A stretch of 30,631 nucleotides of DNA, taken from positions 118,001 through 148,631 of the IMG/VR virus record IMGVR_UViG_3300045988_175865. One strand, given 5' to 3'. Position numbers and translations under genes: made by a program. Below the pieces are notes generated by a model that worked only from the letters and a program-made list of their open reading frames with translations, was not told the origin of the DNA and searched no databases. Shown here piece after piece: positions 1,820 through 30,631 of the stretch (positions are counted from its first letter, which is position 1; each line of letters starts with the position of its first letter). The DNA comes from a virus.

Positions 1820-2870
1820 GAAAAGTTTGAAGTTCTCGGCACTAGATCCATACATTGTAAGTAACATAGTAGAGCCTACAGAAAGTAAGAAAAGAGGATC
1901 AGATATGATAATGTGAGGCGATAATAATCGCTATCCTATTTACTTATGGGATCTATATTTAAACTGTGCAACATTACAGTCAATTATCAATGGAACTGCC
2001 GATTTTATCGTTGGAGACGATGTTATTTGTAATAAAGAGGGATTTAACGTAGTTGTTAATAAGAAAGGTGAAACGATAGTAGACATCTTTAGAAAGATAG
2101 CAATAGATAAGATGATTTTTGGAGGATATGCTGTTCAAGTAATTAGAAATATGGTTGGAGAAGTCAGTGAGATTTATCACTTAGATTTTATGAAGATCCG
2201 TTCTAATGAAAAGAATACTGTTCTTTATTATGCAGATGATTGGGAGGCTTGGTCAGTTAAGGCTTTAACTTATCCTAAATATGAGATAAATGATAGTGCT
2301 CCTGCTTCTGTAGTTTATAATAAAGGCTATGTAACAAGAAGCGTATATCCAATTCCAGTTTATGGAGCTGCTCTATTAAGTTGCGAAACTGAGAAGTGCA
2401 TTAATCAATTCCATTTAAATAACCTTAATAATGGATTTATGAGTAATGTTATTATTAACTTTAATAATGGAACTCCTACAGATGAAGCACAAGAAGAGAT
2501 TGAACGTAATATTAACGAGAAGTTCTCTGGATACCAAAATACTGGACGTATTCTTATTTCTTATAATGATTCAGATGTAAATAAGACTACTGTTGAAAGA
2601 CTTGATTCTGATGATTTCGATGAACGATATGAATCATTAGCAACTAGAACAAGAGAGCAAATATTCTGCGCTTTCAGAGCTAATCCTGTGTTGTTCGGTA
2701 TTAATTATGCTTCTGGATTCTCAAAACAAGAGTATCAGCAAGCATTTGATTTATACAATCGAACTATGGTGCAGCCAATACAAAAAGATATTTGTAAAAG
2801 TTTCGATACTATCTTTGGAATGAAAAATTCCGTTACAGTGGTACCTTTTAGTATGAATTGAAATGAATAA
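1806..2870 (+). CDS. Portal protein (354 aa)
   Basis: ATG 1806 to TAA 2868-2870, with in-frame TGA at 1914 and 2859. The N-terminal WGDNNRYPIYLWDLYLNCATLQSIINGTADFIVG and later FRANPVLFG segments look like Phage_portal-type proteins. Recognised by eye. Confidence 0.75.
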
Positions 2871-3456
2871 TTATACTGTTTATTGCCATATTAATAAATA
2901 TAATAATAAAATTTATATAGGTATTACTGGACAAGATCCTAAAAAACGTTGAGGAAATGGGAAAGGTTATAAGAATTCCTTTTTCTTTAATGCAATACAA
3001 AAATATGGCTGAGATAATTTCGAGCATAAAATCCTGTATACTAATTTATCTAAATTAGATGCAGAGCTTATAGAAATAGATTTAATACATTATTATAAAT
3101 CTATTAATAAAAGCTATAATATTGCTAATGGAGGTAATGTTACTACAGGATTAAAGATGTCAGAACAAGCGAGAAAAAACATATCACAAGGGCATATAGG
3201 ACTTAAAAGAAGTGATTCATTTAAAGAGAAGATAAGAGTTGCCAATAAAAATCGTTCTGACGAAATAAAAAGAAAACTGATAGATAGCAATAAACGTCCT
3301 ATAATTCAGCTATCATTAGATGGAGTCTTTATAAACGAATATGAGAGTATTAAAGATGCAGAGTTACAATTAGGGATATGACATCAAAATATATCTAAAT
3401 GTTGTAAAAACATCTATAAAACTGCTGGAGGATATAAATGACAGTATAAACAGTAA
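2863..3456 (+). CDS. GIY-YIG homing endonuclease (197 aa), free-standing between the portal and connector genes
   Basis: YTVYCHINKYNNKIYIGIT (GIY-YIG), KKR-W-GNGKGY (TGA 2950), KYG-W-DNFEH (TGA 3010), NUMOD3-like SEQARKNISQGH, C-terminal KTAGGYK-W-QYKQ. Four in-frame TGA; ends in TAA at 3454-3456. Confidence 0.9.
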
Positions 3457-4122: not shown

Positions 4123-4545
4123 ATGACATATTATGAAATAATCAATGGGCTAAAAGAATCTGCTCTTATGGAGCCTAATATTAATTTCGCTGGCAGTAAA
4201 GATATCTATGAGTTAAATAGCCTTCCTAATATAGATTATAATGTATTCTATATAACTCCAAATACATTTAATCTTGATGAAGATACTATTACATACTCAT
4301 TGAATCTTTACTATGTTGCCAGATGAGATGAAACAGACGAGAATCAACTTGAAGAACAGTCTGCTGGAATTTTAGCTCTTACAAATATAATTAACCGATT
4401 TAATAACACCTATCCTGATGTTCAATTATCTTACCCTTTAATATTTACTCCATTTTATCAAAAGTTCAAAGATATATGTACTGGAATATTTGTAAGAGTA
4501 GATATAATGGTAGATAATGTATTAGGAGTATGCGAAAATATATAG
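4123..4545 (+). CDS. Hypothetical virion-module protein (140 aa)
   Basis: ATG 4123 lies 1 nt after the previous stop. TGA at 4324; TAG at 4543-4545. No family recognised. Confidence 0.5.
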
Positions 4546-5108
4546 TATATATACATATATTTCCAAATGGAAAAAGGTATGTAGGGTTAACAACTCAAGA
4601 TGTTGATTCTAGATGAAGAAATGGGGAGGGATACAAACATCAGTTTGTTTATAAACCAATTAAAAAATACGGATGAAATAATATTAAACATATTATATAT
4701 TACGTAAACAATGAAACAGAAATGAAATATCTTGAAAAATACTTATTTGGTTACTATAATACTACTGATTTAAGATATGGGTATAATCGAACTGATGCTA
4801 ATAATCATCCGATATTTTCTGAAAAAACTAAAAATATTATGTCTGAACTTGCTAAAACTCGAATTGGAAATAAGAATCCATTTTATGGCAAGCATCATTC
4901 ATATGAAACTAAAAATAAAATAAGTATTAAAAATCAAAATATTAAAAATAAGCCAATTGCCCAGTATGATTTAGATGGCAATTTTATCAAATCCTATAAA
5001 AGCATACGATCCGCTTCTAGAGAACTGAGTATTGGCAGTGGTTTAATATGAGCAGTTTTGGCAGGAAGACAGTATCAAACTCATAAATTTATTTTTAAAT
5101 ATTTGTAA
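4530..5108 (+). CDS. GIY-YIG homing endonuclease (192 aa)
   Basis: KYIVYIHIFPNGKRYVGLT, DSR-W-RNGEGY, KKYG-W-NNIKH, NUMOD3-like repeats (TRIGNKNPFYGKHHS), C-terminal PIAQYDLDGNFIKSYKSI module. Three in-frame TGA; TAA at 5106-5108. Confidence 0.9.
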
Positions 5109-6376: not shown

Positions 6377-6585
6377 TATCTATGTTCATATAAATAAATT
6401 AAATCATAAAATGTATTTTGGGATCACCAAACAAAATCCAAAAAGACGTTTTAGAGACGGAGAAGGTTATAAAAGTTGTACAAAATTCTACAAAGCAATA
6501 CAGAAATATGGCTGATAGAAGTGGAATTTATCGTACAGTTGGAACTTCTAAAAAAGCCTATGGTTATAGGTGAGAATATATTTAA
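6369..6585 (+). pseudogene. Degenerate GIY-YIG homing endonuclease remnant
   Basis: The first frame, 6369-6518, encodes MYSIYVHINKLNHKMYFGIT...GEGYKSCTKFYKAIQKYG-W and then stops at TAG. A +1 frame, 6514-6585, encodes ...KKAYGYR-W-EYI stop, the typical C-terminal end of the intact endonucleases. The middle of the gene is missing. Confidence 0.7.
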
Positions 6586-6600
6586 GATAAAATAAAGTAA

Positions 6601-6630
6601 GGGAGCCTTTTGAGCTCCCTTTTCTTTTTA
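6601..6630. terminator. Bidirectional rho-independent terminator between the convergent lysis and leftward operons
   Basis: GGGAGC (6601-6606), 7-nt loop, GCTCCC (6614-6619), followed by TTTTCTTTTT. Located where + and - strand genes converge. Confidence 0.7.
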
Positions 6631-6738
6631 ATAGATAATCTTACCAGTTTGTAGATCTATAACTGCATTTAAATCTTTAGGTATCACATACACATAATAG
6701 ACGCCATTTATACATACTTTATAAGTTATATACTCCAT
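6628..6738 (-). CDS. Small hypothetical protein (36 aa)
   Basis: Minus-strand ATG at 6738, TAA complement at 6628-6630. Spaced 2 nt from the upstream gene. MEYITYKVCINGVYYVYVIPKDLNAVIDLQTGKIIY. Confidence 0.4.
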   Translation of the reverse strand: MEYITYKVCINGVYYVYVIPKDLNAVIDLQTGKIIY

Positions 6739-6740
6739 AA

Positions 6741-6911
6741 TTAAATAGTTGTTGAGTTTGGAATTTCTTCATCTAAGTCTTCCCATTCTAATACTGGGCG
6801 TATTTCAACATCCTTTTTATACTCTCTTGCAATATTTTCAAGATAAACAATTCTGTACTCAAGTTTTTCGATTCTATCGAATAATTCATTAATTCTTTCT
6901 TTATCAGTCAT
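6741..6911 (-). CDS. Small hypothetical protein (56 aa), coiled-coil-like
   Basis: Minus-strand ATG at 6911, stop complement at 6741-6743. MTDKERINELFDRIEKLEYRIVYLENIAREYKK... Packed 2 nt from both neighbours. Confidence 0.5.
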   Translation of the reverse strand: MTDKERINELFDRIEKLEYRIVYLENIAREYKKDVEIRPVLEWEDLDEEIPNSTTI

Positions 6912-6913
6912 AA

Positions 6914-7081
6914 TTAGTCGTTTTTAGAATAAAATTTATAATCTCTTTGGCTTAAAATCTTTTTAATTGCAGCATCCATTTTGCTGCTTTCTTTTTTATG
7001 GTCTTCCATCCATATATCCAGTTCTTTTAAGAAGAGGTCTGAATCCCTCAGAACCTCTTCTATCGTTTTCTTTGTTTCCAT
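6914..7081 (-). CDS. Small hypothetical protein (55 aa)
   Basis: Minus-strand ATG at 7081, stop complement at 6914-6916. METKKTIEEVLRDSDLFLKELDIWMEDHKKESSKMDAAIKKIL... Confidence 0.5.
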   Translation of the reverse strand: METKKTIEEVLRDSDLFLKELDIWMEDHKKESSKMDAAIKKILSQRDYKFYSKND

Positions 7082-7084
7082 ATG

Positions 7085-7116
7085 CAAATATAATAATTAT
7101 ATTTTAATTTTCCAAA
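7085..7116 (-). promoter_or_regulatory. Bacteroidota-type promoter (TTTGGAAA, 20 nt, TATATTTG) directly upstream of gene 6914-7081
   Basis: The reverse complement of 7085-7116 is TTTG-gaaaattaaaatataattat-TATATTTG. This is the same -33/-7 architecture and 20-nt spacer as the three promoters at 8990-9191. Confidence 0.55.
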
Positions 7117-8831
7117 TTAAATACGAATTTTTTATTTAAAATTACATAACCTTCTACTTGTTTACCTTCAATTCTTTTTTGGCACTTTTTAACGTCGTAG
7201 TATTTGTCAATCTCAGTAGCTTTAGGAGCTGTAGTAATTCCTGCAACAGTATAAGCATCTTTTATATACTTCTTAATATCTGCATTAGAATATCACATTC
7301 CAAGGCTTAAATGCTCATTTAATTTCTTTGCAGCTTTGTTATCTGTAGATTTATTAGAAGCTTTGAGTAATTCATCTTTAATTGCGCTAATGCAATACTT
7401 TAAACTTGCCATTTTCTCAAATCCGAGCTTTGTAATAGCATCCATTAACCAAGGATATTTAATCTTAGCATTATCTAAGATAGGAGTTGCAAATCTATAT
7501 TTTACTTCCCATTCAGCTCTAACATCTTTAATAAGCTCTTTAAATGGTTTGGTATCTGAATCAAAGTCAATCTTAATTGAATTATCCTCGCATTCTACAA
7601 CCTTTTTAAAGCCATTCTTTAAATACTCATTATTAAGATTAGTTCTAATTGAATATAAACCTCTTGTAACCTTGAAGTTAAATATATCGACTTTAGCCAT
7701 ATTAGGATCAAACGTAAAGGTATAATCATCATTTACTTGAATATAAGTATCACTGGTAAACTCTTTAAGTTTCTTTCTTGCAACTTCTGGCATTGCATTA
7801 TAAGCCTCAACTGCAATTTTAGTCTCTTCGATATTCTGGAGATTCTTCTTTCTAAAATCCTCATAAGATACCTCAGCGTATCTTGTTGCAGAATATAAGT
7901 GAGTAATCCAATTTAAATACTTACTATTTCTAATTCTACCAGCAATCTGCTGAATTGAAGTTGAAATATCAAGTAATGTCTGAGCTTTCTGAGCATCCGA
8001 AACTACTACAATACGTCCATTTTCATCATAAATATCAGAACCTTCAAATACTGTAGAAGTTAATAAGTTGATCTTTTTAGGTTCATCTAATACAGTAGAG
8101 TTCTTAATTGTAAGTTTAGTCTTGTTATTCTTTGAATAGATAACTCTTGTATTTGATTCATTTAATTTAGCCTTCTGAATAAGGTTCTTTATAAAGTCAA
8201 CTGAGTTAACAAAGATATATACATTACCTTCAACTTGATTATTTAAAACTGCAGTTATAAGTTTAATAGTTGAAGCCTCAACATTCTTACATTTAACAGC
8301 CTGAACTTTAGTCTCTATAACATCATCCCATTCTTGTTTTACTAATGGAAGATCTTTTAATTCATCAAGTACAAACTCTTCTTCAAGTGGAGTTGCAGTC
8401 ATAAAAGTATACTCTTTAAAGAGCTTATAGTTATCAAGTACAGGTTTAATAGCATCCTTTCTAAAGCTATACTGATTAAAAAGAATATGATATTCATCTA
8501 CTAATAAACTATAATCTTTAGGATTAACTGCTGAAATAACTTTTGGTAAAGAGTTATAAGTAACAATGATTTTAGGGCAATTAACTCGTTTTACATAATC
8601 TTTAATCTCTGCAATAGTTACTCCAGCAAATACACCGAAGATCTCTTCTGTACGTCTTTCATTAGGATACTGTTGAATCTTGTTCTCAACTAAACTGGTA
8701 AAAGGAACACAAATAACATAAGGCTTGTTACATTCAATAGCCATAGAAGTTCCACCACAACCAACTTTTCCTTTGTCAAATAAGCAGTTAGTAGGTAATT
8801 CATTGATTAAATTATTTAAATAAGTTTTCAT
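7104..8831 (-). CDS. SF2 (DEAD/DEAH-like) helicase, 575 aa including a 62-aa extension past an in-frame TGA
   Basis: Track ORF 7293-8831 carries LLVDEYH (motif II), MTATP (motif III) and QQIAGRIRN (motif VI). Motif I is atypical (GKVGCGGTS). The frame stays open through TGA (complement of 7293-7295) for 62 more codons, to the TAA complement at 7104-7106. Confidence 0.75.
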
Positions 8832-8989
8832 AATAGTAATTTTTAATAAGTTAATAAATTTTATATGTAACTTTTTTTATTTATCTTACTACAAAATATT
8901 AGTAAAAAAGTTACAGTAAAGATTAAAATTAAACTGGGAATTAATCCCAGCTCAATTTTCAATATGGAAGTAGTTTTAGTTTGATAGTA

Positions 8990-9021
8990 CAAAGATAATA
9001 CATAAAATTTCAATTTCCAAA
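8990..9021 (-). promoter_or_regulatory. Leftward promoter P-L1 (TTTGGAAA, 20 nt, TATCTTTG)
   Basis: The reverse complement reads TTTG-gaaattgaaattttatgtat-TATCTTTG, matching the Bacteroidota -33 TTTG / -7 TAnnTTTG consensus. About 150 nt upstream of the helicase ATG. Confidence 0.6.
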
Positions 9022-9078
9022 TAATTTTGCAATTATTTTTAATAAATTTTTTATTTATTATCTCTTACTTTCATAGTA

Positions 9079-9110
9079 CAAATATACAACATTATTTTTA
9101 AATCTCCAAA
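9079..9110 (-). promoter_or_regulatory. Leftward promoter P-L2 (TTTGGAGA, 20 nt, TATATTTG)
   Basis: The reverse complement reads TTTG-gagatttaaaaataatgttg-TATATTTG. It is a tandem copy of the P-L1 module, 89 bp further upstream. Confidence 0.55.
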
Positions 9111-9159
9111 TATTTTTATGAAAATAATTTAAATTTTTTTGAAAAAAGTTGTTAAAAAA

Positions 9160-9191
9160 TTTGGAGATTGGATAAAAATGTATTATCTTTG
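9160..9191 (+). promoter_or_regulatory. Rightward early promoter P-R (TTTGGAGA, 20 nt, TATCTTTG)
   Basis: TTTG-gagattggataaaaatgtat-TATCTTTG lies about 45 nt upstream of ATG 9237. It shares the 16-mer ATGTATTATCTTTGTA with P-L1 in inverted orientation. Confidence 0.6.
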
Positions 9192-9236
9192 TATTACAAT
9201 AAAAGACATAATATTAACAATTAAACTTTATAAATT

Positions 9237-9416
9237 ATGAAAACTAAACAAATTGAAGCACTTGAATATTTTCTTAATATATTAGATGGTAAGATTACTG
9301 AAGATGGTTCTATTGAGAAAGCTCAAGAATTATGTAATGAGGCATTAAAGGAGATTGAAACCAATGAAAAGGTAAAGAAATCCTCTTGGTTTTTTGGTTT
9401 AGGTATTTCTTTCTAA
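9237..9416 (+). CDS. Early hypothetical protein (59 aa)
   Basis: ATG 9237 to TAA 9414-9416. First ORF downstream of P-R. No family recognised. Confidence 0.5.
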   Translation: MKTKQIEALEYFLNILDGKITEDGSIEKAQELCNEALKEIETNEKVKKSSWFFGLGISF

Positions 9417-9427
9417 TATATTTAATT

Positions 9428-9667
9428 ATGAAAAAGATAAATAAAATATTAGCTGGATTATTAGTACTTAGCTTTATTATAGCTGGTATTAGAGTATATA
9501 ATGCTTATGGAGACTACCAAACTAAAACATTTGAGCTTAGATTAGAACAGGCAGAACTTCAGCATAAATTAGACTCTGTAATGTGGTATAATCCTGGAAG
9601 TTCAGAAGTATCTGAATTATATGAACAGTATTGTGATGTAACCTTAAAAATTCATAATGTAAGATAA
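9428..9667 (+). CDS. Early membrane-anchored protein (79 aa)
   Basis: ATG 9428 (internal Met of track ORF 9386-9667). The N-terminal segment KKINKILAGLLVLSFIIAGI looks like a signal anchor. Confidence 0.55.
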   Translation: MKKINKILAGLLVLSFIIAGIRVYNAYGDYQTKTFELRLEQAELQHKLDSVMWYNPGSSEVSELYEQYCDVTLKIHNVR

Positions 9668-10104
9668 TGAAAACAGATATAAGAAGTTTAGTCTTTATAA
9701 AGAATCTATTTAAAGATAAATATAATATAGAAATAGAATGATGTAAAGACGATTATTCCAGATATGATGGAACATTTACTTGGAATAATATAGACTATAT
9801 AATTGAAGTTAAAAGGAGAAGATTTAAATCAGATAAATATCCAACTACAATTATAAACAGGGATAAATTTGATATGCTATCAAGAAATAATTCTATATTA
9901 GTAATAATATTTGATGATGGAGTATATATATTTAAAGATATAAAACAAGCCTTTATAAAGGATTCTATGAAATATGGTTGTTCTACAACAGATTTTGGAG
10001 GAACTTATGGCTATTCATTAAAAACAGAGTTGTCTTTAAAGAAAGCCATTAAGATAGATGTAAATACAGAATTTAGTAATTATATAGCAAATGATAGCCT
10101 ATAA
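9667..10104 (+). CDS. Hypothetical protein, possible PD-(D/E)XK nuclease fold (145 aa)
   Basis: ATG 9667 overlaps the previous stop. TGA at 9739 is read as Trp. YDGTFTWNNIDYIIEVKRRRF fits a D...(D/E)xK pattern. Weak by-eye call. Confidence 0.35.
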
Positions 10105-10585
10105 AAGAATACTTAATTTTGAAAACTACCAAATTGGAACTGATGGCTCAATATGAAGTTTAAGAGCATCAGTTCCAAAGAGGTTAAAACCTCAAGTAAA
10201 AACTAATGGGTACTTTACAGTAACATTATATAATAAAAATTTGAAAAAGAAGTGTTATATACATAGATTAGTAGCTGAAACTTTTATATCTAATCCGAAT
10301 AACTATCCTTGTATAAATCATAAGGATGAAAATAAATCAAATAATAATGTAAGTAATTTAGAATGGTGTACTTATAATTATAATAATAATTATGGAACTC
10401 ATAATCTGCGAGCTGGATATAGTCATAAGAAACCAATACTGCAATTACTAAATGGAATAGTTATTAAAAGATGGGATTCAGCAATAGATGCTGAGAGAGA
10501 ACTAAATATACAATCTAGAAATATTGTAAAGGTTCTTAAAGGGCAGCGAAAAACAGCAGGAGGATATATGTGAACATATGAGTAA
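10091..10585 (+). CDS. HNH homing endonuclease with NUMOD4-like N-terminus (164 aa)
   Basis: NFENYQIGTDGSI-W-SL (NUMOD4-like), HRLVAETFISNPNNYPCINHKDENKSNNNVSNLEW (HNH core), C-terminal KPILQLLNGIVIKRWDS...RKTAGGYM-W-TYE. TGA at 10154 and 10571; TAA at 10583-10585. Confidence 0.85.
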
Positions 10586-10886
10586 TAACGAAATTGTAGA
10601 AAAGTACTATCCATTTATTATGGAACTTAAGCAAAAATTTGGTGCAGATGATGACTGTGTTCAAATGATTTTTGTAGAAATACTAGAGTATTCAAATCCA
10701 AAATTAAATCAGCTTGATAGCAAAAATGAATTGAAATTTTGGATTACAAGATTATTTAAGAATTATTGGTTTAGTAAAACAAGTAGATATTACTATACCT
10801 ATAAGAAATATTATGAGATTGTTAAAGAACCACTTGAACAACAAAATGACGAATTGGAGGATTGATTAAATGAAACGGAAGATTAA
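10578..10886 (+). CDS. Sigma-70 family region-2-like protein (102 aa)
   Basis: DDDCVQMIFVEILEY ... ELKFWITRLFKNYWFSKTSRYY resembles ECF-type sigma region 2 (the DLVQE and WL..I..N segments). TGA at 10863 is read as Trp; TAA at 10884-10886. Confidence 0.45.
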
Positions 10887-11115
10887 TATTGACGATTTAC
10901 TTACTGAGTATGAAATAGACTATAGTATGTTTACAAATATGGATGATAGACTATTAAGTATATATCCAAAATGACTTGAGCTTAATAAGGCAGATAAGAC
11001 AGTAATCATATTATATGCTAAATATCACAGTTATAGAGAAGTGGGAAAAATATTGGGAATTAGTCATACTACAATTCAAAGATTTATTAAACAAATAAGA
11101 GAGAGATTATGTTAG
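10870..11115 (+). CDS. Sigma-70 region-4-like helix-turn-helix protein (81 aa)
   Basis: LNKADKTVIILYAKYHSYREVGKILGISHTTIQRFIKQIRERL resembles sigma region 4.2 / LuxR-type HTH. It is a separate frame, with TAA immediately before its ATG. TGA at 10972 is in frame. Confidence 0.45.
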
Positions 11116-11438
11116 AATTATTTATAATAGCAGTAATAATAGTCTTTATAATTGATTTATCTGGGGCTTTGGATAGTTTTAAACATAGTATTTGAAAAAG
11201 ACTATTTAAAGGTATGCCTTATAAAGAAGATTGAAGACTAAAACCTTTAGATTGCAGTTTATGTATGACTTGGTGAATTGGATTAATATATATTCTTATT
11301 ACAAGTCAATTTTCAATTTTAATGGTTGGATATATTGCACTATTAGCATTTATGACTCCAATTATTAAAGATATTATGATATTATTAAAAGATGCATCTA
11401 CTAAGCTGATAGATGTTATATACAAACTTATTAATTAA
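11109..11438 (+). CDS. Integral membrane protein with a CxxC motif (109 aa)
   Basis: ATG 11109 to TAA 11436-11438, with TGA at three positions, including a TGG-TGA pair that reads WW. Hydrophobic N-terminus and centre; KPLDCSLCMTWW motif. Not in the standard-code track. Confidence 0.6.
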
Positions 11439-11527
11439 AAATTATATTTTATGGAAACAGAAGTTATTTATCACTACAAGAATGGAAAGTTAATTTCTAT
11501 ATTTACTTATACTAAAAAGTGCTAATT

Positions 11528-11863
11528 ATGAAACAATTAACAGAAGAGCAGTTTAAATATTTAAGAGGATTTGAAGATAGATTTGTAACTGCAACTAAGT
11601 CTAATTATTGCAGAAATGTACAAAAGCAGGATGTAATTAAGCTTAAAGAGATTTATGAATGTTTAATTGAACAAGAATATAGAATGAGCATAGCTTGTGC
11701 TACTTGTATACTTAATCTTATAAAGAGGATTGCCCCAATCTATTTTGAATATCAAGAAAAACTAAAGGAAAATGAAAGTAAAGAATCAGGAACTGCCGAA
11801 GAAAACAGGGAGGCCAAGAAAGGAAGAGGTAGAAAAGGAACAAATAGACGAAGTAAAGACTAA
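11528..11863 (+). CDS. Hypothetical protein (111 aa) with a basic tail
   Basis: ATG 11528 within track ORF 11519-11863. The last 92 nt overlap the TerS frame. Confidence 0.5.
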   Translation: MKQLTEEQFKYLRGFEDRFVTATKSNYCRNVQKQDVIKLKEIYECLIEQEYRMSIACATCILNLIKRIAPIYFEYQEKLKENESKESGTAEENREAKKGRGRKGTNRRSKD

Positions 11864-12224
11864 ATATCTTTATGCTGCAAGGTTATTTAACAAAGGATGG
11901 TCAAGGAATAAAGTAAGTGAAGAACTTCAAAGTAAATATAATGTAAGCCAATCAACGGCTGCAAGATATATTGGAGAAGCTTATAAGATAATTGCTGAAA
12001 AGAATGATAACCTTATAAAAAATCTTAGACATATACAATTATCAAGATTGGAATCATTACTGGATACTGCTATTAGTAAGGGAGATATTAGAGCTGCAAA
12101 TGAGATTATTAAGACTATAAATAGTATGTTTGGATTAAATCAACCTGAGACTATTGTAGCTATTCAGAATAATGAAGTCCAGTTTAAATTTGGAGATCCA
12201 ATTAACAATGACAAAAATATATAA
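11772..12224 (+). CDS. Terminase small subunit (150 aa)
   Basis: N-terminal GRPRK, HTH-like NKGWSRNKVSEELQSKYNVSQSTAARYIGEAY, helical C-terminus. Lies immediately upstream of, and overlapping, TerL. Confidence 0.6.
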   Translation: MKVKNQELPKKTGRPRKEEVEKEQIDEVKTKYLYAARLFNKGWSRNKVSEELQSKYNVSQSTAARYIGEAYKIIAEKNDNLIKNLRHIQLSRLESLLDTAISKGDIRAANEIIKTINSMFGLNQPETIVAIQNNEVQFKFGDPINNDKNI

Positions 12225-13455
12225 AGGATATAGCCCATTTATCTATCAATTAAAGGTACATACTGCTTTAGAGCACTCTTATAGGTCTGGAAAAATATTT
12301 ACTGTAAAAGCAAAGAGACAATGTGGTAAATCCTTTATGGCAGAAAATGAACTATTACGATTTTCAATTAACTATCCTGGAAGTATTAGCTGTATTGTTG
12401 AACCAACTCTTACTAACTCCAGAAAGATATTTAAAGAGTTAGTAAAGGCATTAGATGGCACAGATATTATTAAGAAAAAGAATGAATCTTTGCTTGAGAT
12501 TGAATTTACTAATGGGAGTGAAATACTATTTAAATCTGCTGAGCAAAAAGATTCATTACGAGGATTTACAGTTAGTGGAATATTAGTAATTGACGAAGCA
12601 GCTTATATATCAGATGAAGTATACGAAATTTTAACACCTATAGCTGATGTATGAAATGCTCCAATACTTATAATTAGTACTCCAAGGTTTAGAGAAGGAT
12701 TCTTTTATGAATGCTTTAAAAAGGGCTTTGATGGTAATTTTAGTAAATATTATCAATCCTTTGATTGAGCATTAGAAGATACTTCTATGCTGTTAAGTGA
12801 GGATAAACTTGAAATGTATCGCCTTACAACCTCCAAAAATAAATTTAGAACTGAATATCTTGGAGAGTTTGCAGATGATGATGGTTGCCTATTTAATAAT
12901 ATAGCTAACTGTATAATTGATAAAAAACCTGAATATCATAATCTTTATATTGGAGTTGACTGGGCTACTGGAAGTGGTAAAGACTATACTTGTGTTACTG
13001 CTTTAAATGAATCTGGGCAAATGGTCTTTATAAAGTATTTTAACGATAAAACTCCAACAGAACAAGTTGATTTACTGACAAATATATTCACTGAGTATCA
13101 AGGATTTATAAAGATAGTTCAAGTCGAACAAAACTCAATAGGTTCAGTGTTTTATGATATTCTTGTAAAAAGGAATCCTAAATTACGGATAGTTAAGTTT
13201 TTAACTACTAATAAGTCTAAGGCAGCTATTGTAAATAAGCTACAAGCGGCATTAGAAAACGAAAAGATTGGTATTTTAAAGGATGATAAACTATTAAATG
13301 AATTAAGACTATATGAAGCCAGTTACAATCCGAGAACTGGAAATGTAACATATAACGCACCATCTGGATTTAATGACGATACAGTAATTAGTCTTATGTT
13401 GGCATACGACTCTTTAAATAATACTAAAGGTAAATATAACTTAAAATTTAAATAA
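12208..13455 (+). CDS. Terminase large subunit (415 aa)
   Basis: Walker A-like KAKRQCGKS, Walker B ILVIDEAAY, and a C-terminal nuclease-like half (IGVDWATGSGKDYT ... FNDDTVISL). Track ORFs 12172-12654 and 12787-13455 are in the same frame, joined through TGA 12652 and 12766. Confidence 0.9.
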
Positions 13456-13456
13456 T

Positions 13457-14098
13457 ATGATAAAATCTTGGAAAGAAATGGATTTAAGTCATTATAAGAA
13501 ACTGACTGAATTAAAAAGTAAAGAATGGGAAAATGACTTAGAAATGAATATAGCTATGATAGCTATGCTATCTGATCAATCTGAAGAGGATATAATGAAT
13601 TTAGAGATTAAAGAGCTTCAGGAAAGAATAGATGCACTTGGCTTCTTAATTAATCCTTATAAACCTTCTACTCCTGAAAAAAGCTATTTAATTGGAGATA
13701 GAGAGTATCAAGTATTTTTTAATGTAAATAAAATGACAGCAAGTCAATATATCGACTTTCAGAATTTCTTTAAAGAGTATGATAATTATATGCCAAATTT
13801 AGCTGCTTGTTTCTTGCTCCCTAAAGGTAAGAAATATGGAGAAGATTACGATCCTTTAGAAGAAGCTGAATACTTAAATAAACATCTTACTGTTGATATA
13901 TTTTCAGACATTATGTTTTTTTTTGTAAAGTTATCGCAGCTCTCAACAATGAATTCCCTGTACTCTTTGGAAAAAGAGATGAAGAAGAGCCTGAAGAAAA
14001 CAAAGAACAAAGTAGAGAGAATAAGGATTCTAAGAACTTTGATTCAGACGAGACGGTTAATACTTTTACTCAAAAGTGGAATTGAATTATCTGAATAG
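13457..14098 (+). CDS. Chaperone-like protein, zero-frame product (213 aa); contains a T9 slippery run
   Basis: Track ORF. The N-terminal 155 aa (…MTASQYIDFQNFF…) resemble tail-assembly-chaperone-type proteins by eye. After T9 at 13916-13924 the zero-frame tail becomes low-complexity and basic. Confidence 0.5.
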   Translation: MIKSWKEMDLSHYKKLTELKSKEWENDLEMNIAMIAMLSDQSEEDIMNLEIKELQERIDALGFLINPYKPSTPEKSYLIGDREYQVFFNVNKMTASQYIDFQNFFKEYDNYMPNLAACFLLPKGKKYGEDYDPLEEAEYLNKHLTVDIFSDIMFFFVKLSQLSTMNSLYSLEKEMKKSLKKTKNKVERIRILRTLIQTRRLILLLKSGIELSE

Positions 14099-14274: not shown

Positions 14275-14293
14275 GTTACAAAAAAACTTGACA
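14275..14293 (+). promoter_or_regulatory. Conserved motif variant GTTACAAAAAAACTTGACA, copy 2 of 4
   Basis: Shares AAAAAACTTGACA with 1314-1326 and 23239-23251. Lies between stop 14241 and ATG 14333. Confidence 0.5.
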
Positions 14294-23232: not shown

Positions 23233-23274
23233 GTGAGTAAAAAACTTGACAGTTATATTCTATATAAATATAAT
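23233..23274 (+). promoter_or_regulatory. Conserved 19-mer GTGAGTAAAAAACTTGACA, copy 4 of 4, here followed by 17 nt and TATAAT
   Basis: Exact copy of 1308-1326. TTGACA at 23246-23251, a 17-nt spacer, then TATAAT at 23269-23274. About 60 nt upstream of the capsid module ATG at 23333. Confidence 0.6.
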
Positions 23275-25505: not shown

Positions 25506-26273
25506 ATGAACCGAATTGGGAACGTTTATATAATTACAAATACTATAAATAACAAAGTTTACATAGGTCAAACTATAAGAAATATAAGACAAAGATTTAG
25601 TGAGCATATGTCTCTTCATCAGAGAGGCAATGCTCATCTAAAATCTGCAGTATTAAAATACGGTAAAGAATCTTTTAATATAGAGGTATTAAAGACTTTA
25701 GAGACTAATAATGAAGATGAACTCTTTAAGTTTCTAGATAAATGGGAAAAGTACTATATAAAGAAGTATAAGTCTTATGATTCTGAGTTTGGCTATAATA
25801 TTGATTTTGGAGGTCAATTAAATAGAGTGGTATCTGATGAATCTAGAAAAAAGATAAGTGAATCACATAAAGGTGTTAAGTTATCTCTTGAGAGAATAGA
25901 AAAGCAGAGAGAATATATGAAGAATCATCCAGAAAGATGGATTGATCCTATACATAATATAGGTAAACAACTTTCTGAGGGACATAAACGCAAAATATCT
26001 GAAGCTCAAAAAGGAGAGAAGAAAAATATGTGAGGGAAACATCATAGTGATGCTACCAAAGAAAAACTTAGTAAAAGTGTCAGTGCTGCTATGATTAATA
26101 AGTATGGTAAACCAGTATTGCAGTATTCATTAGATGGAGAATTTATTAAAGAATGGAATTGTATAATGAATGCAGCTAAATCATTTAATAGTAAGCGTTC
26201 TCATATTCCAGATGTATGTAATGGTAAAAGATCTTCTTGTTTTGGTTATAAATGAAAGTGGAAATACGAATAA
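25506..26273 (+). CDS. GIY-YIG homing endonuclease (255 aa) inserted between the capsid and tail-tube genes
   Basis: GNVYIITNTINNKVYIGQT (GIY-YIG), LKYGKESFNIEVL, repeated NUMOD3-like SESHKG / SEGHKRKISEAQKG, C-terminal KPVLQYSLDGEFIKEW...FGYK-W-KWKYE. TGA at 26031 and 26253; TAA at 26271-26273. Confidence 0.9.
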
Positions 26274-26820: not shown

Positions 26821-26859
26821 AAGAGCGGGTAATTAATTTTACTCGCTCTTATTTTGTTT
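26821..26859 (+). terminator. Rho-independent terminator after the tail-tube gene
   Basis: AAGAGCGGGTAA / TTACTCGCTCTT forms a 12-bp stem with one G-U pair and loop TTAATT, followed by ATTTTGTTT. Confidence 0.75.
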
Positions 26860-26888
26860 ATAGACATTAATAATAAAAATTATATAAT

Positions 26889-29800
26889 ATGGAAAATCTA
26901 TTACCCTATTTAAATGTACTTGAGGCAGACACTATTACAAGGGATAATGTAAACAAAGCCTTAGTAATAGATAAAGATGATAATATAGCTCTTTTAAATG
27001 GAGAAGATTTAGGAACTAATAATTATCAAGATCTGCAAAATAAGCCAGAAATAAACGGAGTATCTTTAAATGGAAATCTTACTGCAAGTGAGTTAGGATT
27101 AGCATCTACTAGCAATATACCTACTAAAACTAGTCAATTGACTAATGATAGTGGGTATATTACTAGCTTAGATGGATATGCTACAGAGGAATGAGTAAAT
27201 AGTCAAGGATTTGCTACTAATGAATCTGTTACTGAAGGTTTAGCTGAAAAACAAGATAAATTAGTTAAAGGTAATGGAATCAATATATCTGGAAATACTA
27301 TATCTGCTGATTATAGTTCAATAGATAATAAGCCATCTTTAAATGGTAAGACTTTAGAAGTCTCAACGAACATAGTTCCAGCAATACAGGTTCAAGCAAT
27401 ACCTACTAAATTGACTATTACTCCATCTTTAGGTAATCAAACTGGACAAGCAGTTGAACTTCCTGGATATGATACAAATACTAATGCTTCTGGTATTTTA
27501 ACATCTCAAGTATTTGGTATTCTTAATGATAAGTATACTAAAGAAGAAATAGACAATATTAACAGTGCGATTAATACAGCTATTTCTAAAAAACAAGATA
27601 AATTAACAGCAGGAGCTAATATACGAATTGTAGATAACGTTATATCTGCATTTAATAATCATTTATTCTTACATTTAGATGAAAATGATACAGAACATCA
27701 GGCTTATGTATATTCTTTTATTAAGTCTAATTTAGAGTTCTATTTATTTGCTGAGATCACTTACGAAGGCAAAGTAGTAGTTCTTCCTTTAGTTGCTATT
27801 GAAAACAACGAATCGTTAGATTTAAAAGGAATGTATCTTAAAGATGATTCTACAATCGTTGAGGTATCTGCAGTTTTAGTAGCTAATGGTAATATGACTG
27901 TTAAAGTTACTGAGGTTGATCTTACTAATAAAGTATATACTAAAGAAGAAGTAGATGCCAAACTTGAGGAAAAACAAGGAGTATTTGCTCCACAAGCTCC
28001 ATTAGCTTTTAATGAAGATAAATCCCAATTATCTGTAGATTTATCTGGATACCAACCAGTTGGTGATTATGCTTTAAAGAGTGATATTCCAACTAAAGTT
28101 AGTGAGCTTACTAATGATTCTAACTTTGTAACTGAAACAGAGGTTTCTGGAGATTTAGCAGGTAAAGCAGATAAGACTTATGTTGATGAGCAGCTTGCTA
28201 CTAAACAGCCTGTAGGAGATTATGCAACAAAAACAGAACTTGCTGGTAAAGCTGATTCTTCTGTGGTAGAATCTTTATCTACTCAAGTAGCAACTAATAC
28301 TTCAGATATATCAATTATTAAAACAAAACAAGAAGAAGATGGAGATAAGATTGATTCTCTTGATAAAGAGATGGCTACCAAACAGGATACTCTTGTTAGT
28401 GGAGAATCAATTAGAACAATTAACAATCTTTCTTTATTAGGGGAAGGTAATATTAATGTAGGCGATGTTCCTTCTATTACAGTAGAAAATGAACAAATAC
28501 CAAATGAGACAGATTTTAATAGAGTTGCAGAAGCTGCGGCAAATAATAGAGCTGTTTTAATTAGAATTAAAACTACTGAAATGACGTTAACCTCTAATTA
28601 TTGACAGTATACCTCTTCAGAATCTCAGAGAGGCTTTGTTGCTTATGCAACATATTTATCAGAAACTAATAACATAACTCTGACGGCACATATTATAGAA
28701 AATCAACCAGTTATGGTAGAAACTTATGATAAAGAATTACAAGAAGAGTTAGTTTCTGGGACTAATATTAAAACTATTAATGGTACTGCTATACTAGGAT
28801 CAGGTAATATAGACACTCCAGATAGTAAGGTTACTAGTGCTGCTAATCACTATACTCCTGTTGGAGGAAGTGCTACATCTGGAACTATTATAAATTCTAT
28901 TACTAAGGATGAGAAAGGACATATTATAGATATAGGGGTTGCTAATGGTATAGATGCTGGTAAAATTACCTCGGGAGTTATTGATATTGAGAGATTGCCT
29001 AAGGGAGCACTGGAGCGTTTAGTAATAGTTGCAAATAAAGCAGCAAGACTAGCTTTAACCACTGAACAAGTACAAGAAGGCGATACTGTTAAAGAGAAAG
29101 ATACAGGTGTAATGTATTTTGTTATTGATTCTTCTAAATTAAATAGTGAAGATGGCTACTCTATTTATACAGCAGGAGCAGCATCTAGTGTGCCTTGGTC
29201 AGGAGTGACAGGTAAACCTGATTTAGTTAACTCGGTTAAGTTAGTACTGCCAAGTTCCATATTCATTAATTCTGAAAGTACACTTACAGGAAATGCAGAA
29301 TTAGGATCATCTTTAAGTACACAAAACGCTAATACAGTATGAGCAGCTCCAAGTGGCACATCTGGGGTACCAACATTTAGGAAATTAACTTTCCTAGATA
29401 TGAATACAGTAACGTCAGATAAATTTAACTATATACCCCAGACATTTAAAGGAGGAAGGCTAGTAATTAATTATAAAAACTCTGCTGGGGGTCAAAATAC
29501 TGACAACACTATAACAGAATACCAATTTGGAGATGGGGCCAGTAATCTTACATACATAACAGCAAAAGGTTTTAAAACTTCGGAAAATAATGGACACAGG
29601 GTACTATGTTCAAATGGATCTTCCAAATTATTGTATGGACCATCAACTCCTGGAACAGCAGGACAAGTATTAATTTCAAATGGGTCATCAACTCCTGAAT
29701 GGGGAAAAGTACCTATAACTAGTATAGGAGGACCTACTGTTGATACTGCGACTTCTAATACTGTACCATATGGAATTACTTCATATATTGGGGAGTACCG

Positions 29801-30631
29801 TTCTGATAAATTAGCGTTTATAAAGAGCACTGATTTATATGGAGAAATAAGTAAAAACAACGGAGAATTGTGAACTGAAGATCCTAAGGGGAGTAGTAGA
29901 CTTATAAGTTTATTTACTTCACAAGATAATAAGTATGGTCTACAATTAATAGATACAGAAGATGTTAGCACAACCACTCAATATAGACTTACTATAAATA
30001 ATAGTGACAGGTATTGTACTATTGATTGAATATATATATATATGTCTACTAACGGCTCTGGTTATAATTGCTTTATAGAAGCATATAATCCTAGTTCTGA
30101 ATCTTGAGATATAATATCTCAGGATGCTGTTTTACAGGGGTGATCGGGACCTAATTTTAGAGCTTTGACATCTTCTATATATTATAACAATTCCCCAAGT
30201 ACAGCTTCTCAATATTCGAAACTAAGGTTTACATTTTCAACTAGAAGTGTTAGTGAGAACTATAGTGGACAATTGACAGTCTATAGAATTTCTGGATATG
30301 GTACTTATGGCTGGAGAATGCCTAACAATATGTCTAAAGTAGGTCAAATATATTCTTGGGATAATGCTCAAAATGTTTCTTTTCCAGGAAGTGTATCGGC
30401 TTGAAAATTTATCAGTAATGGGGGTACTAGTACTAATGTAACAATGGGAGATGGATCTCTAAAAGATCTTAAAACTAAACAACTAGTTGTAAACGGTACT
30501 ATAAATAATTTTTATTCATCAGATAGTGTTGAGGTTAGACTTTACGCTCCTACTTCAGGTGGTACTAGTGGGCAGATTCTTGTATCTAATGGTAATAATG
30601 CTCCTAACTGAGCATCCTTAGATAGTTTAGG
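26889..30631 (+). CDS. Tail fibre protein (1293 aa in the circular genome; cut by the window end, true stop equals 922-924)
   Basis: Track ORFs 26889, 27411, 28713, 29400 and 30165 are all in one frame, separated only by TGA (27192, 28602, 29340, 29871 and five more). Repeated fibre modules: TKTSQLTNDSGYIT / TKVSELTNDSNFVT, QPVGDYA, LVSGTNIKTINGTAILGSGNI / LVSGESIRTINNLSLLGEGNI, GTAGQVLISNGSSTPEW. Confidence 0.85.
29847..30631. repeat. Second copy of the terminal assembly overlap (equals 1-785)
   Basis: See 1-785. Confidence 0.95.

Follow-up and report, generated by a model that had tools for sequence, protein, structure and literature searches.

A probable two-subunit ECF-type sigma factor encoded by two overlapping genes of an uncultured phage

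Introduction

Sigma factors are almost always single chains. Domain 2 contacts the clamp helices of beta-prime and both recognises and melts the -10 element, domain 4 binds the beta flap and, through a helix-turn-helix (HTH), the -35 element, and the linker between them, which passes through the RNA exit channel, is believed to be important for initiation and promoter escape. The canonical ECF sigma factor is a single chain co-transcribed with a membrane anti-sigma factor, as in RpoE-RseA of E. coli and SigW-RsiW of B. subtilis, and the sigma gene classically precedes the anti-sigma gene. In the late transcription system of phage T4, whose gp55 and gp33 are the classical "split sigma" of a phage, gp33 is not known to have a DNA-binding HTH, and the sliding clamp is needed as an activator.

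The two-subunit sigma factor SigO-RsoA (YvrI-YvrHa) is known from Bacillus subtilis (MacLellan et al. 2009, as cited in PMC7826278), and it serves the 2021 reclassification of ECF sigma factors as the example of an ECF whose sigma-2 and sigma-4 parts belong to different polypeptides (PMC7826278). By that survey's own statement, phage ECFs and split ECFs escaped it (PMC7826278). In phage T4, the small sigma-2-like protein gp55 and a separate protein at the beta-flap/sigma-4 position replace the host sigma factor for late genes (bioRxiv 10.1101/2024.09.12.612765).

Here, we examined two overlapping phage genes, designated ORF1 and ORF2, which an earlier note had read as a bipartite sigma factor or a frameshift-dependent single one. 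Remote homology, fold comparison, single-chain relatives, and the deep conservation of the split all favored the bipartite proposal, and we consider that ORF1 and ORF2 probably form, as its two subunits, a phage sigma factor of ECF type (group 4) that is highly divergent and naturally split.

Results

The phage genome and its genetic code

The window, meaning the whole stretch of 30,631 nucleotides that was analysed, carries a terminal repeat in which bases 1-785 equal bases 29847-30631, indicating that it represents a complete genome of about 29.85 kb, assembled as a circle. The genome has a GC content of 30% and nearly all of its genes on the + strand, and a search of the window for tRNA genes found none present. 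The phage is also carried on contigs of 193 kb and 198 kb.

The phage evidently reads TGA as tryptophan (genetic code 4), as judged from three observations. The large terminase gene (12172-13455) and other long genes are contiguous only when TGA is read through; codon 96 of ORF1 is TGA in the window and TGG in relatives; and in some relatives, a complete ORF2 is obtained under table 11, so that the in-frame TGA for the conserved Trp35 must be absent there. Under table 11, both ORF1 (at 10865) and ORF2 (at 10974) end early and seem truncated; therefore, ORF2 would escape standard gene callers.

No RNA polymerase gene is annotated in the close relatives, and the host RNA polymerase must therefore serve the phage. 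No close cultured isolate was found by blastn of positions 9000-14000 or by tblastn of the large terminase (TerL). In the GenBank phage collection, nothing matched in tblastn, whether the query was a fused relative, a distant split one, or the ORF1 protein, and the GTDB genomes scanned for TerL gave no match either. An exact scan for the host with a 20-mer motif returned one chance match, without homology to the window.

Two overlapping genes, each with its own start

The locus is laid out as follows.

10578-10886, + strand: ORF1, 102 aa in code 4; region-2-like, with an acidic C-terminal tail; in-frame TGA (Trp96) at 10863-10865
10856-10872, + strand: ORF2 translation start, read from the sequence; GGAGGA at 10856-10861, 8-nt spacer, ATG at 10870-10872
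10870-10886, + strand: ORF1/ORF2 overlap, 17 nt, with ORF2 in the +1 frame; putative translational-coupling junction
10870-11115, + strand: ORF2, 81 aa in code 4; region-4-like HTH; in-frame TGA (Trp35) at 10972-10974
11109-11438, + strand: gene for a 109-aa membrane protein, predicted to have three membrane helices; overlap with the end of ORF2

The two ORFs claimed by the earlier note were borne out, but only in translation table 4, under which ORF1 holds the strings that it had picked out, DDDCVQMIFVEIL and FWITRLFKNYWFSKTSRYY, and ORF2 holds its string SYREVGKILGISHTTIQRFIKQIRERL. The 17-nt overlap, the different frame, and the preceding in-frame TAA that it described were likewise confirmed by direct reading of the sequence; the TAA (10867-10869) lies within the spacer and abuts the ATG of ORF2. 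The GGAGGA/ATG start is kept in close relatives, and in distant relatives the second ORF also starts with ATG, preceded in some by a purine-rich sequence.

Database relatives numbered 31 for ORF1 and 108 for ORF2, nearly all of them about 80-102 aa in length, and no fusion of ORF1 and ORF2 occurred among them. A profile of the ORF1 relatives led to 567 cluster representatives among 1.84 billion proteins. The numbers of relatives and profile-found representatives indicate that ORF1 and ORF2 are real genes and not chance ORFs.

Conservation of the split

In IMG/VR, ORF1 retrieved 27 loci (66-100% identity), every one of which carried the two ORFs in an unchanged frame relation, and six more independent assemblies (ENA, Logan) showed the identical split, for a total of 33 close loci. 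The commonest ORF2 variant was indexed in 873 assembly-collection blocks, mostly on contigs of 20-50 kb. In distant relatives (25-50% identity), an ORF1-like gene is followed by an ORF2-like gene in genomes with a GC content of 26-63% that mostly use the standard code; the distant split examples inspected directly had a GC content of 26-55% and used the standard code. Furthermore, in phages of very different GC content, the proteins of both ORFs remain conserved at identities as low as 25-35%. The split form is common in the whole family of uncultured phages: of 89 distant loci, 38 are split and 49 encode a single chain, the latter including many near-identical 183-aa proteins.

The junctions of the 38 distant split loci varied. 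The second ORF was in the +1 frame in 22 cases and in the +2 frame in 16, and at the junctions examined the two genes overlapped by 1, 4, 8, 17, 35, or 40 nt or were separated by gaps of 1-2 nt. The junction sequences were mutually unrelated, including ATGA and TAATG, and each one examined had its own ATG. Such a pattern is typical of translationally coupled neighbours, unlike one conserved frameshift site. Frameshifted ORF1 entries were few (P0022 and P0025-27), each occurring in just 1-2 contigs. The conservation of both proteins and of their arrangement suggests that the split is old and widespread.

Similarity of ORF2 to sigma region 4

The best NCBIfam match of ORF2 was the sigma70-ECF model TIGR02937 (E=1.4e-5), with residues 37-80 aligned on model positions 117-161 of 165, and all 19 ORF2 family members considered also matched this model. 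With Pfam, Sigma70_r4_2 scored 24.6 bits against a cut-off of 25.7, and HTH_50 matched at E=2.7e-8; TyrR-type, LuxR-type, and other HTH families fit the ORF2 sequence about as well as sigma-4 does. In the AF2 model of ORF2 (pLDDT 84), the fold resembled ECF sigma-4 domains by comparison with the PDB: a sigma-4 domain was contained in 20 of the first 21 Foldseek matches, which included SigW, RpoE, SigD, SigL, SigC, and the DNA-bound region 4 of sigma-E. These matches had an rmsd of about 2 A over ~55 residues, with probabilities of 0.9-0.99 and E-values of 0.1-1; for example, the model fit 2h27 with an rmsd of 1.9 A and a TM of 0.66. The N-terminal ~35 residues of ORF2 carry a conserved E-Y motif. 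The region-4-like HTH proposed for ORF2 is favored by TIGR02937 and, with good evidence, by the ECF sigma-4 folds; all scores lie under the cut-offs.

Similarity of ORF1 to sigma region 2

ORF1 matched TIGR02937 at E=8e-4, with residues 4-94 aligned on model positions 4-104 of 165 and a score of 19 bits against a cut-off of 42.9. ORF1 and ORF2 thus cover complementary halves of one ECF model. All five NCBIfam matches of ORF1 were sigma models, as were 10 of the 13 NCBIfam families matched by its relatives. Pfam gave no match to ORF1 itself, and PHROG gave nothing usable for ORF1 alone. Among 59 diverse ORF1 relatives, Sigma70_r2 was by far the commonest Pfam family; it was matched, below threshold, by 20 of them, the best at 8.9e-6, and the relative P0146, aligned over positions 8-63 of the 71 in the model, scored 23.7 bits where the cut-off is 24.

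When the ORF1 family was compared by hhalign with reference sequences entered by hand, P was 5e-4 for B. subtilis SigW and 0.04 for E. coli RpoE. In this register, the most conserved motifs D-D-L-x-Q and W/F-I-x-R-I-x-x-N of the family fall on regions 2.2 and 2.4 of SigW/RpoE, respectively. The AF2 model of ORF1 was all-helical (pLDDT 85.6). A Foldseek search of the PDB with this model found no sigma-2 domain, and the HMM profiles of the ORF1 family found no sigma factor among the PDB sequences, giving only chance matches such as Cdc13 and NCoR2. Meanwhile, in BFVD, the model fit the N-terminal halves of ~160-230-aa phage proteins (TM 0.64-0.74), one of which was named an RpoE/sigma24 homologue. 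The region-2-like reading of ORF1 was favored by TIGR02937, by Sigma70_r2 in the relatives, and by the SigW register, but not by Pfam on ORF1 itself or by the PDB fold.

Relatives in which the two halves are one chain

The earlier note had suggested looking for a fused ORF in relatives, and such fusions were found. The 49 or so single-chain loci mentioned above, many of them near-identical, encode one chain of 156-246 aa that is collinear with ORF1+ORF2. The best 150 of the 567 profile-found representatives were mostly stand-alone proteins of ~100 aa; about 22 were long (156-245 aa), with an ORF1-like domain, an acidic linker, and a sigma-4-like HTH.

These natural fusions resemble ECF sigma factors across both domains. 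The single-chain protein P0237 matched TIGR02937 at 4.6e-9, with residues 40-197 on positions 24-165, and the single-chain protein P0154 matched TIGR02989 at 3.8e-8 across both domains. The family phrog_1740, annotated as "RNA polymerase sigma factor", matched single-chain relatives at 2.2e-7 and 5.9e-6 with both domains covered, and matched an artificial ORF1+ORF2 fusion at 1e-5, whereas ORF1 alone or ORF2 alone gave a weak match or none. By hhalign, the single-chain relatives were collinear with SigW over 145 columns (SigW sequence entered by hand); the PDB chains of RpoE and SigH aligned with them weakly.

P0154 lies in the same neighbourhood as the ORF1/ORF2 pair. Its contig has a GC content of 32%, TGA is apparently a sense codon there too, and its neighbours are those of the window, with a homologue of 9667-10104 upstream and a homologue of the 109-aa membrane protein downstream. 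In BLASTP, the joined ORF1+ORF2 sequence and P0154 gave a single collinear alignment over both halves, with 31% identity and E=2e-23. In the window, the break lies within the interdomain linker.

All sequence matches to sigma models fall below the curated cut-offs. The sigma assignment is made up of many weak but concordant signals, with no single strong test among them.

The downstream membrane protein and the 19-nt motif

The 109-aa membrane protein has a conserved P-x-x-C-x-x-C-x-x-W-W loop, with a homologue directly downstream of the sigma genes in 33 of 33 close loci, in most of the split loci among distant relatives, and in many of the fused ones. Pfam and PHROG gave no match to it and no recognisable anti-sigma domain. 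Because a membrane anti-sigma factor classically follows an ECF gene, the 109-aa protein is a candidate partner, although its role as a partner or anti-sigma factor is speculative.

A 19-nt motif, GTGAGTAAAAAACTTGACA, occurs in three copies in the window, compared with 0.02 expected by chance, and each copy is intergenic and ahead of a rightward operon. The motif is made up of an A-tract plus TTGACA without mismatch, and a perfect TATAAT lies exactly 17 nt downstream of the copy at 23233. Relatives have kept the motif, which in them also precedes the operon with the sigma genes and in most cases is followed by a hairpin rich in GC and a run of T. Given the TTGACA, with TATAAT 17 nt downstream in one copy, the motif resembles a -35 element of the housekeeping type, preceded by an A-tract, and not an ECF-type promoter. 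The suggestion that the sigma factor drives the modules carrying this motif therefore found no support, since the motif is housekeeping-like and also stands before the operon encoding the sigma genes themselves. No promoter motif could be assigned to ORF1/ORF2, and nothing links the 19-nt motif to them.

Discussion

A proposed mechanism

We propose that ORF1 acts as sigma domain 2 and ORF2 as sigma domain 4, and that the place of the linker is taken by the acidic tail of ORF1 and the first ~35 residues of ORF2. One mRNA would give two separate proteins by translational coupling, as suggested by the Shine-Dalgarno (SD) sequence and ATG that ORF2 itself has inside the end of ORF1. The two proteins would then assemble on the host core RNA polymerase, where, by analogy with ECF sigma factors, ORF1 would occupy the sigma-2 site and ORF2 the sigma-4 site, and would redirect the enzyme to phage promoters. 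The sigma genes of the window, like those of relatives, sit immediately upstream of the two terminase genes, small and large, and of the structural genes. This position makes a role in turning on the late transcription of the packaging and structural genes plausible.

A wider reading, which we put forward tentatively and regard as doubtful, is that the pair is one member of a large undescribed family of phage two-subunit ECF-like sigma factors, spread over uncultured phages of ~25-38 kb with a GC content of 24-63%, whose linker was broken or joined in the course of evolution and whose adjacent CxxC membrane protein is an anti-sigma or timing partner.

Other readings of the locus

The weakness of the individual matches leaves room for a reading in which neither protein is a sigma factor: ORF2 would be a stand-alone HTH regulator (a repressor or activator), ORF1 would be a helical accessory protein, such as an RNA polymerase modifier or the partner of the regulator, and the weak sigma similarities would reflect shared helical composition. 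Every sigma match is below threshold, HTH_50 and TyrR are among the best sequence matches of ORF2, and ORF1 has no sigma-2 match in the PDB, by profile or by fold. However, the weak matches agree with one another: the NCBIfam matches of ORF1 are to sigma models only, those of the two proteins each occupy the half of a single ECF model that is expected for them, with the motifs in proper register, the natural fusions match ECF models end to end, and nearly all of the first fold matches of ORF2 are sigma-4 domains. We therefore regard this reading as unlikely.

Programmed +1 ribosomal frameshifting in the 17-nt overlap would turn the two ORFs into one gene for a single sigma chain; ORF2 is indeed in the +1 frame and overlaps ORF1, related phages make a single chain, and the junction sequence is highly conserved in close relatives. 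Against this, the TAA right before the ATG of ORF2 confines any shift to 17 nt within which there is no slippery or prfB-like site, the SD of ORF2 is strong and ideally spaced, and among distant relatives the second ORF is in either frame, behind unrelated junctions. A prfB-type gene would have a conserved shift site and no independent downstream start, and the opposite was found on both counts. The frameshift-dependent single product that the earlier note had offered as its second option is thus very improbable. The scarcest credence of all belongs to a broken gene, whether through an assembly or sequencing indel or through decay of a once-fused sigma gene into a pseudogene. The few frameshifted ORF1 variants in the databases might hint at such breakage, but each is confined to one or two contigs, whereas the intact arrangement is common to hundreds of independent assemblies, each ORF retains its start signal, and both proteins are conserved despite great divergence in sequence and GC content. 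A broken gene, assembly error included, is effectively refuted by the conservation of the split in 33 close and 38 distant loci.

Significance of a probable split sigma factor

If ORF1 and ORF2 are indeed a split sigma factor, their family would be a natural system in which to ask whether a covalent sigma linker is needed for initiation and promoter escape, with the split and fused orthologues in the same neighbourhood serving as matched natural pairs for testing the role of the linker. The family could also be a source of compact components for split-sigma logic in synthetic biology, and would allow hundreds of phage proteins of 100 and 85 aa now called "hypothetical" to be annotated.

Comparison with known sigma systems

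Like canonical ECF sigma factors, the pair appears to comprise just a sigma-2-like and a sigma-4-like domain, the characteristic motifs of regions 2.2, 2.4, and 4.2 can be aligned, and a gene for a small membrane protein lies immediately downstream. The differences are that the two domains are on two ORFs with separate starts and not in one polypeptide, that similarity is below every curated threshold, that the family has the signature N-x-W-F-S-K-T-S-R-Y-Y after region 2.4, and that the downstream 109-aa protein has no recognisable anti-sigma domain. Among phage protein families, phrog_1740 is matched across both domains by the single-chain relatives, and it is also matched by the artificial fusion.

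The pair shares with T4 gp55 and gp33 (and the gp45 clamp) the distribution of the phage sigma-2 and sigma-4-position roles over separate proteins. However, in the T4 system the partner is not known to bind DNA and the clamp is required, whereas ORF2 has a sigma-4-type HTH and the gene tables of the relatives contain no clamp gene; the T4 arrangement is therefore not that of ORF1/ORF2.

The likeness to SigO-RsoA is closer. In both, a sigma-2-type and a sigma-4-type part are carried by two small proteins from adjacent genes (co-oriented in the phage), the whole is ECF-like, and the sigma-4 subunit keeps its DNA-binding HTH. In contrast to SigO-RsoA, the ORF1/ORF2 pair is phage-encoded, and its gene order, with the sigma-2 part first and the sigma-4 part second, is that of the domains in an ordinary sigma factor, from which the order of sigO and rsoA presumably differs. 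Furthermore, the break between ORF1 and ORF2 appears to be a clean fission of the linker, with single-chain orthologues in the same neighbourhood of sister phages, and a signature peculiar to the family follows region 2.4. The NCBIfam matches of ORF1/ORF2 included no model of SigO or RsoA. No description of a phage split-sigma family was found in the literature searched, although absence there is no proof of novelty. We make no claim of descent from SigO-RsoA; by arrangement, it appears to be the closest functional analogue, and we regard ORF1/ORF2 as a probable new, phage-borne version of the two-subunit sigma factor.

Genome form and host

The window is a complete phage genome of ~29.85 kb, circularly assembled; when it was compared with itself for repeats, positions 1–785 recurred at 29847–30631. 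Its GC content is 30%, and it was read in genetic code 4, with TGA as Trp. No tRNA genes were found in the window, and given this together with code 4, the expected host is one that reads code 4 too or, failing that, provides a suppressor. A scan of GTDB genomes for TerL, the large terminase of the phage, yielded no host genome, and neither blastn of positions 9000–14000 nor tblastn of TerL, ORF1 (the sigma region-2-like ORF), and relatives recovered a cultured relative. The phage is also contained in an ENA scaffold of 198,436 bp (L029), and a contig of 193,455 bp contains an ORF2 (the region-4-like ORF) identical to that of the window. These two very long sequences could be integrated copies, which would reveal the host, or mis-scaffolds.

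Among the genes of the window and its close relatives, none was recognised as encoding a DNA polymerase or an integrase, and the sole obvious replication-type gene in the window was the following, for which the helicase match was only faint.

7104–8831 (−), 575-aa protein with Walker A- and Walker B-like motifs

Promoter-like and leader-like elements

Two kinds of recurrent element were observed in the window.

1308–1326, 14275–14293, 23233–23251, 19-nt motif GTGAGTAAAAAACTTGACA
near 8903 and 23137, weaker copies of the 19-nt motif
11413–11457 and 26851–26895, ~45-nt stretches, 71% alike

The 19-nt motif, an A-tract followed by a perfect TTGACA, is the last part of a ~60-nt unit in which TGTCA and then a T-rich stretch come before it, and one such unit precedes each rightward operon. 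A perfect TATAAT lies 17 nt 3′ of one copy of the motif. In the relatives, a GC hairpin and a T run usually come next, which places a terminator-like hairpin immediately behind a promoter-like −35 element.

Both ~45-nt stretches end in TAAAAATTATAT(T/A)(T/A)TATGGAAA and lead into an ATGGAAA start, at 11452 in one case and at the tail-fibre gene (26889) in the other, with no Shine-Dalgarno sequence evident at either. They may be a common leader or regulatory element.

Homing endonuclease genes

Homing endonuclease genes were dispersed among the structural genes and also flanked the sigma locus (the ORF1 and ORF2 pair), where their arrangement differed between relatives.

2707–3456, 4530–5108, 25506–26273, GIY-YIG/NUMOD-type genes among the structural genes
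about 6400–6580, apparent homing endonuclease gene remnant
10091–10585 (+), HNH/I-HmuI-like gene overlapping the ORF1 start
L005 about 6530–7000, L023 about 6560–7050, homing endonuclease regions at the sigma locus of relatives

The GIY-YIG/NUMOD-type genes have repeated DNA segments in common (families D3 and D4), and they were variably present or absent among otherwise near-identical genomes. At the sigma locus, the HNH/I-HmuI-like gene is missing from the related loci L028 and L030, and in other relatives, a different HNH gene is inserted immediately 3′ of ORF2, the last ~12 codons of which differ there. This pattern resembles co-conversion beside a homing site.

A predicted membrane protein gene beside the probable sigma genes

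11109–11438 (+), 109-aa protein predicted to have three membrane helices, with a conserved P-x-x-C-x-x-C-x-x-W-W loop

The 109-aa protein matched no Pfam or PHROG family. In nearly all of the split (two-ORF) relatives and many of the single-chain ones, its gene lies directly 3′ of the sigma genes, the same place as that of the anti-sigma genes in ECF operons.
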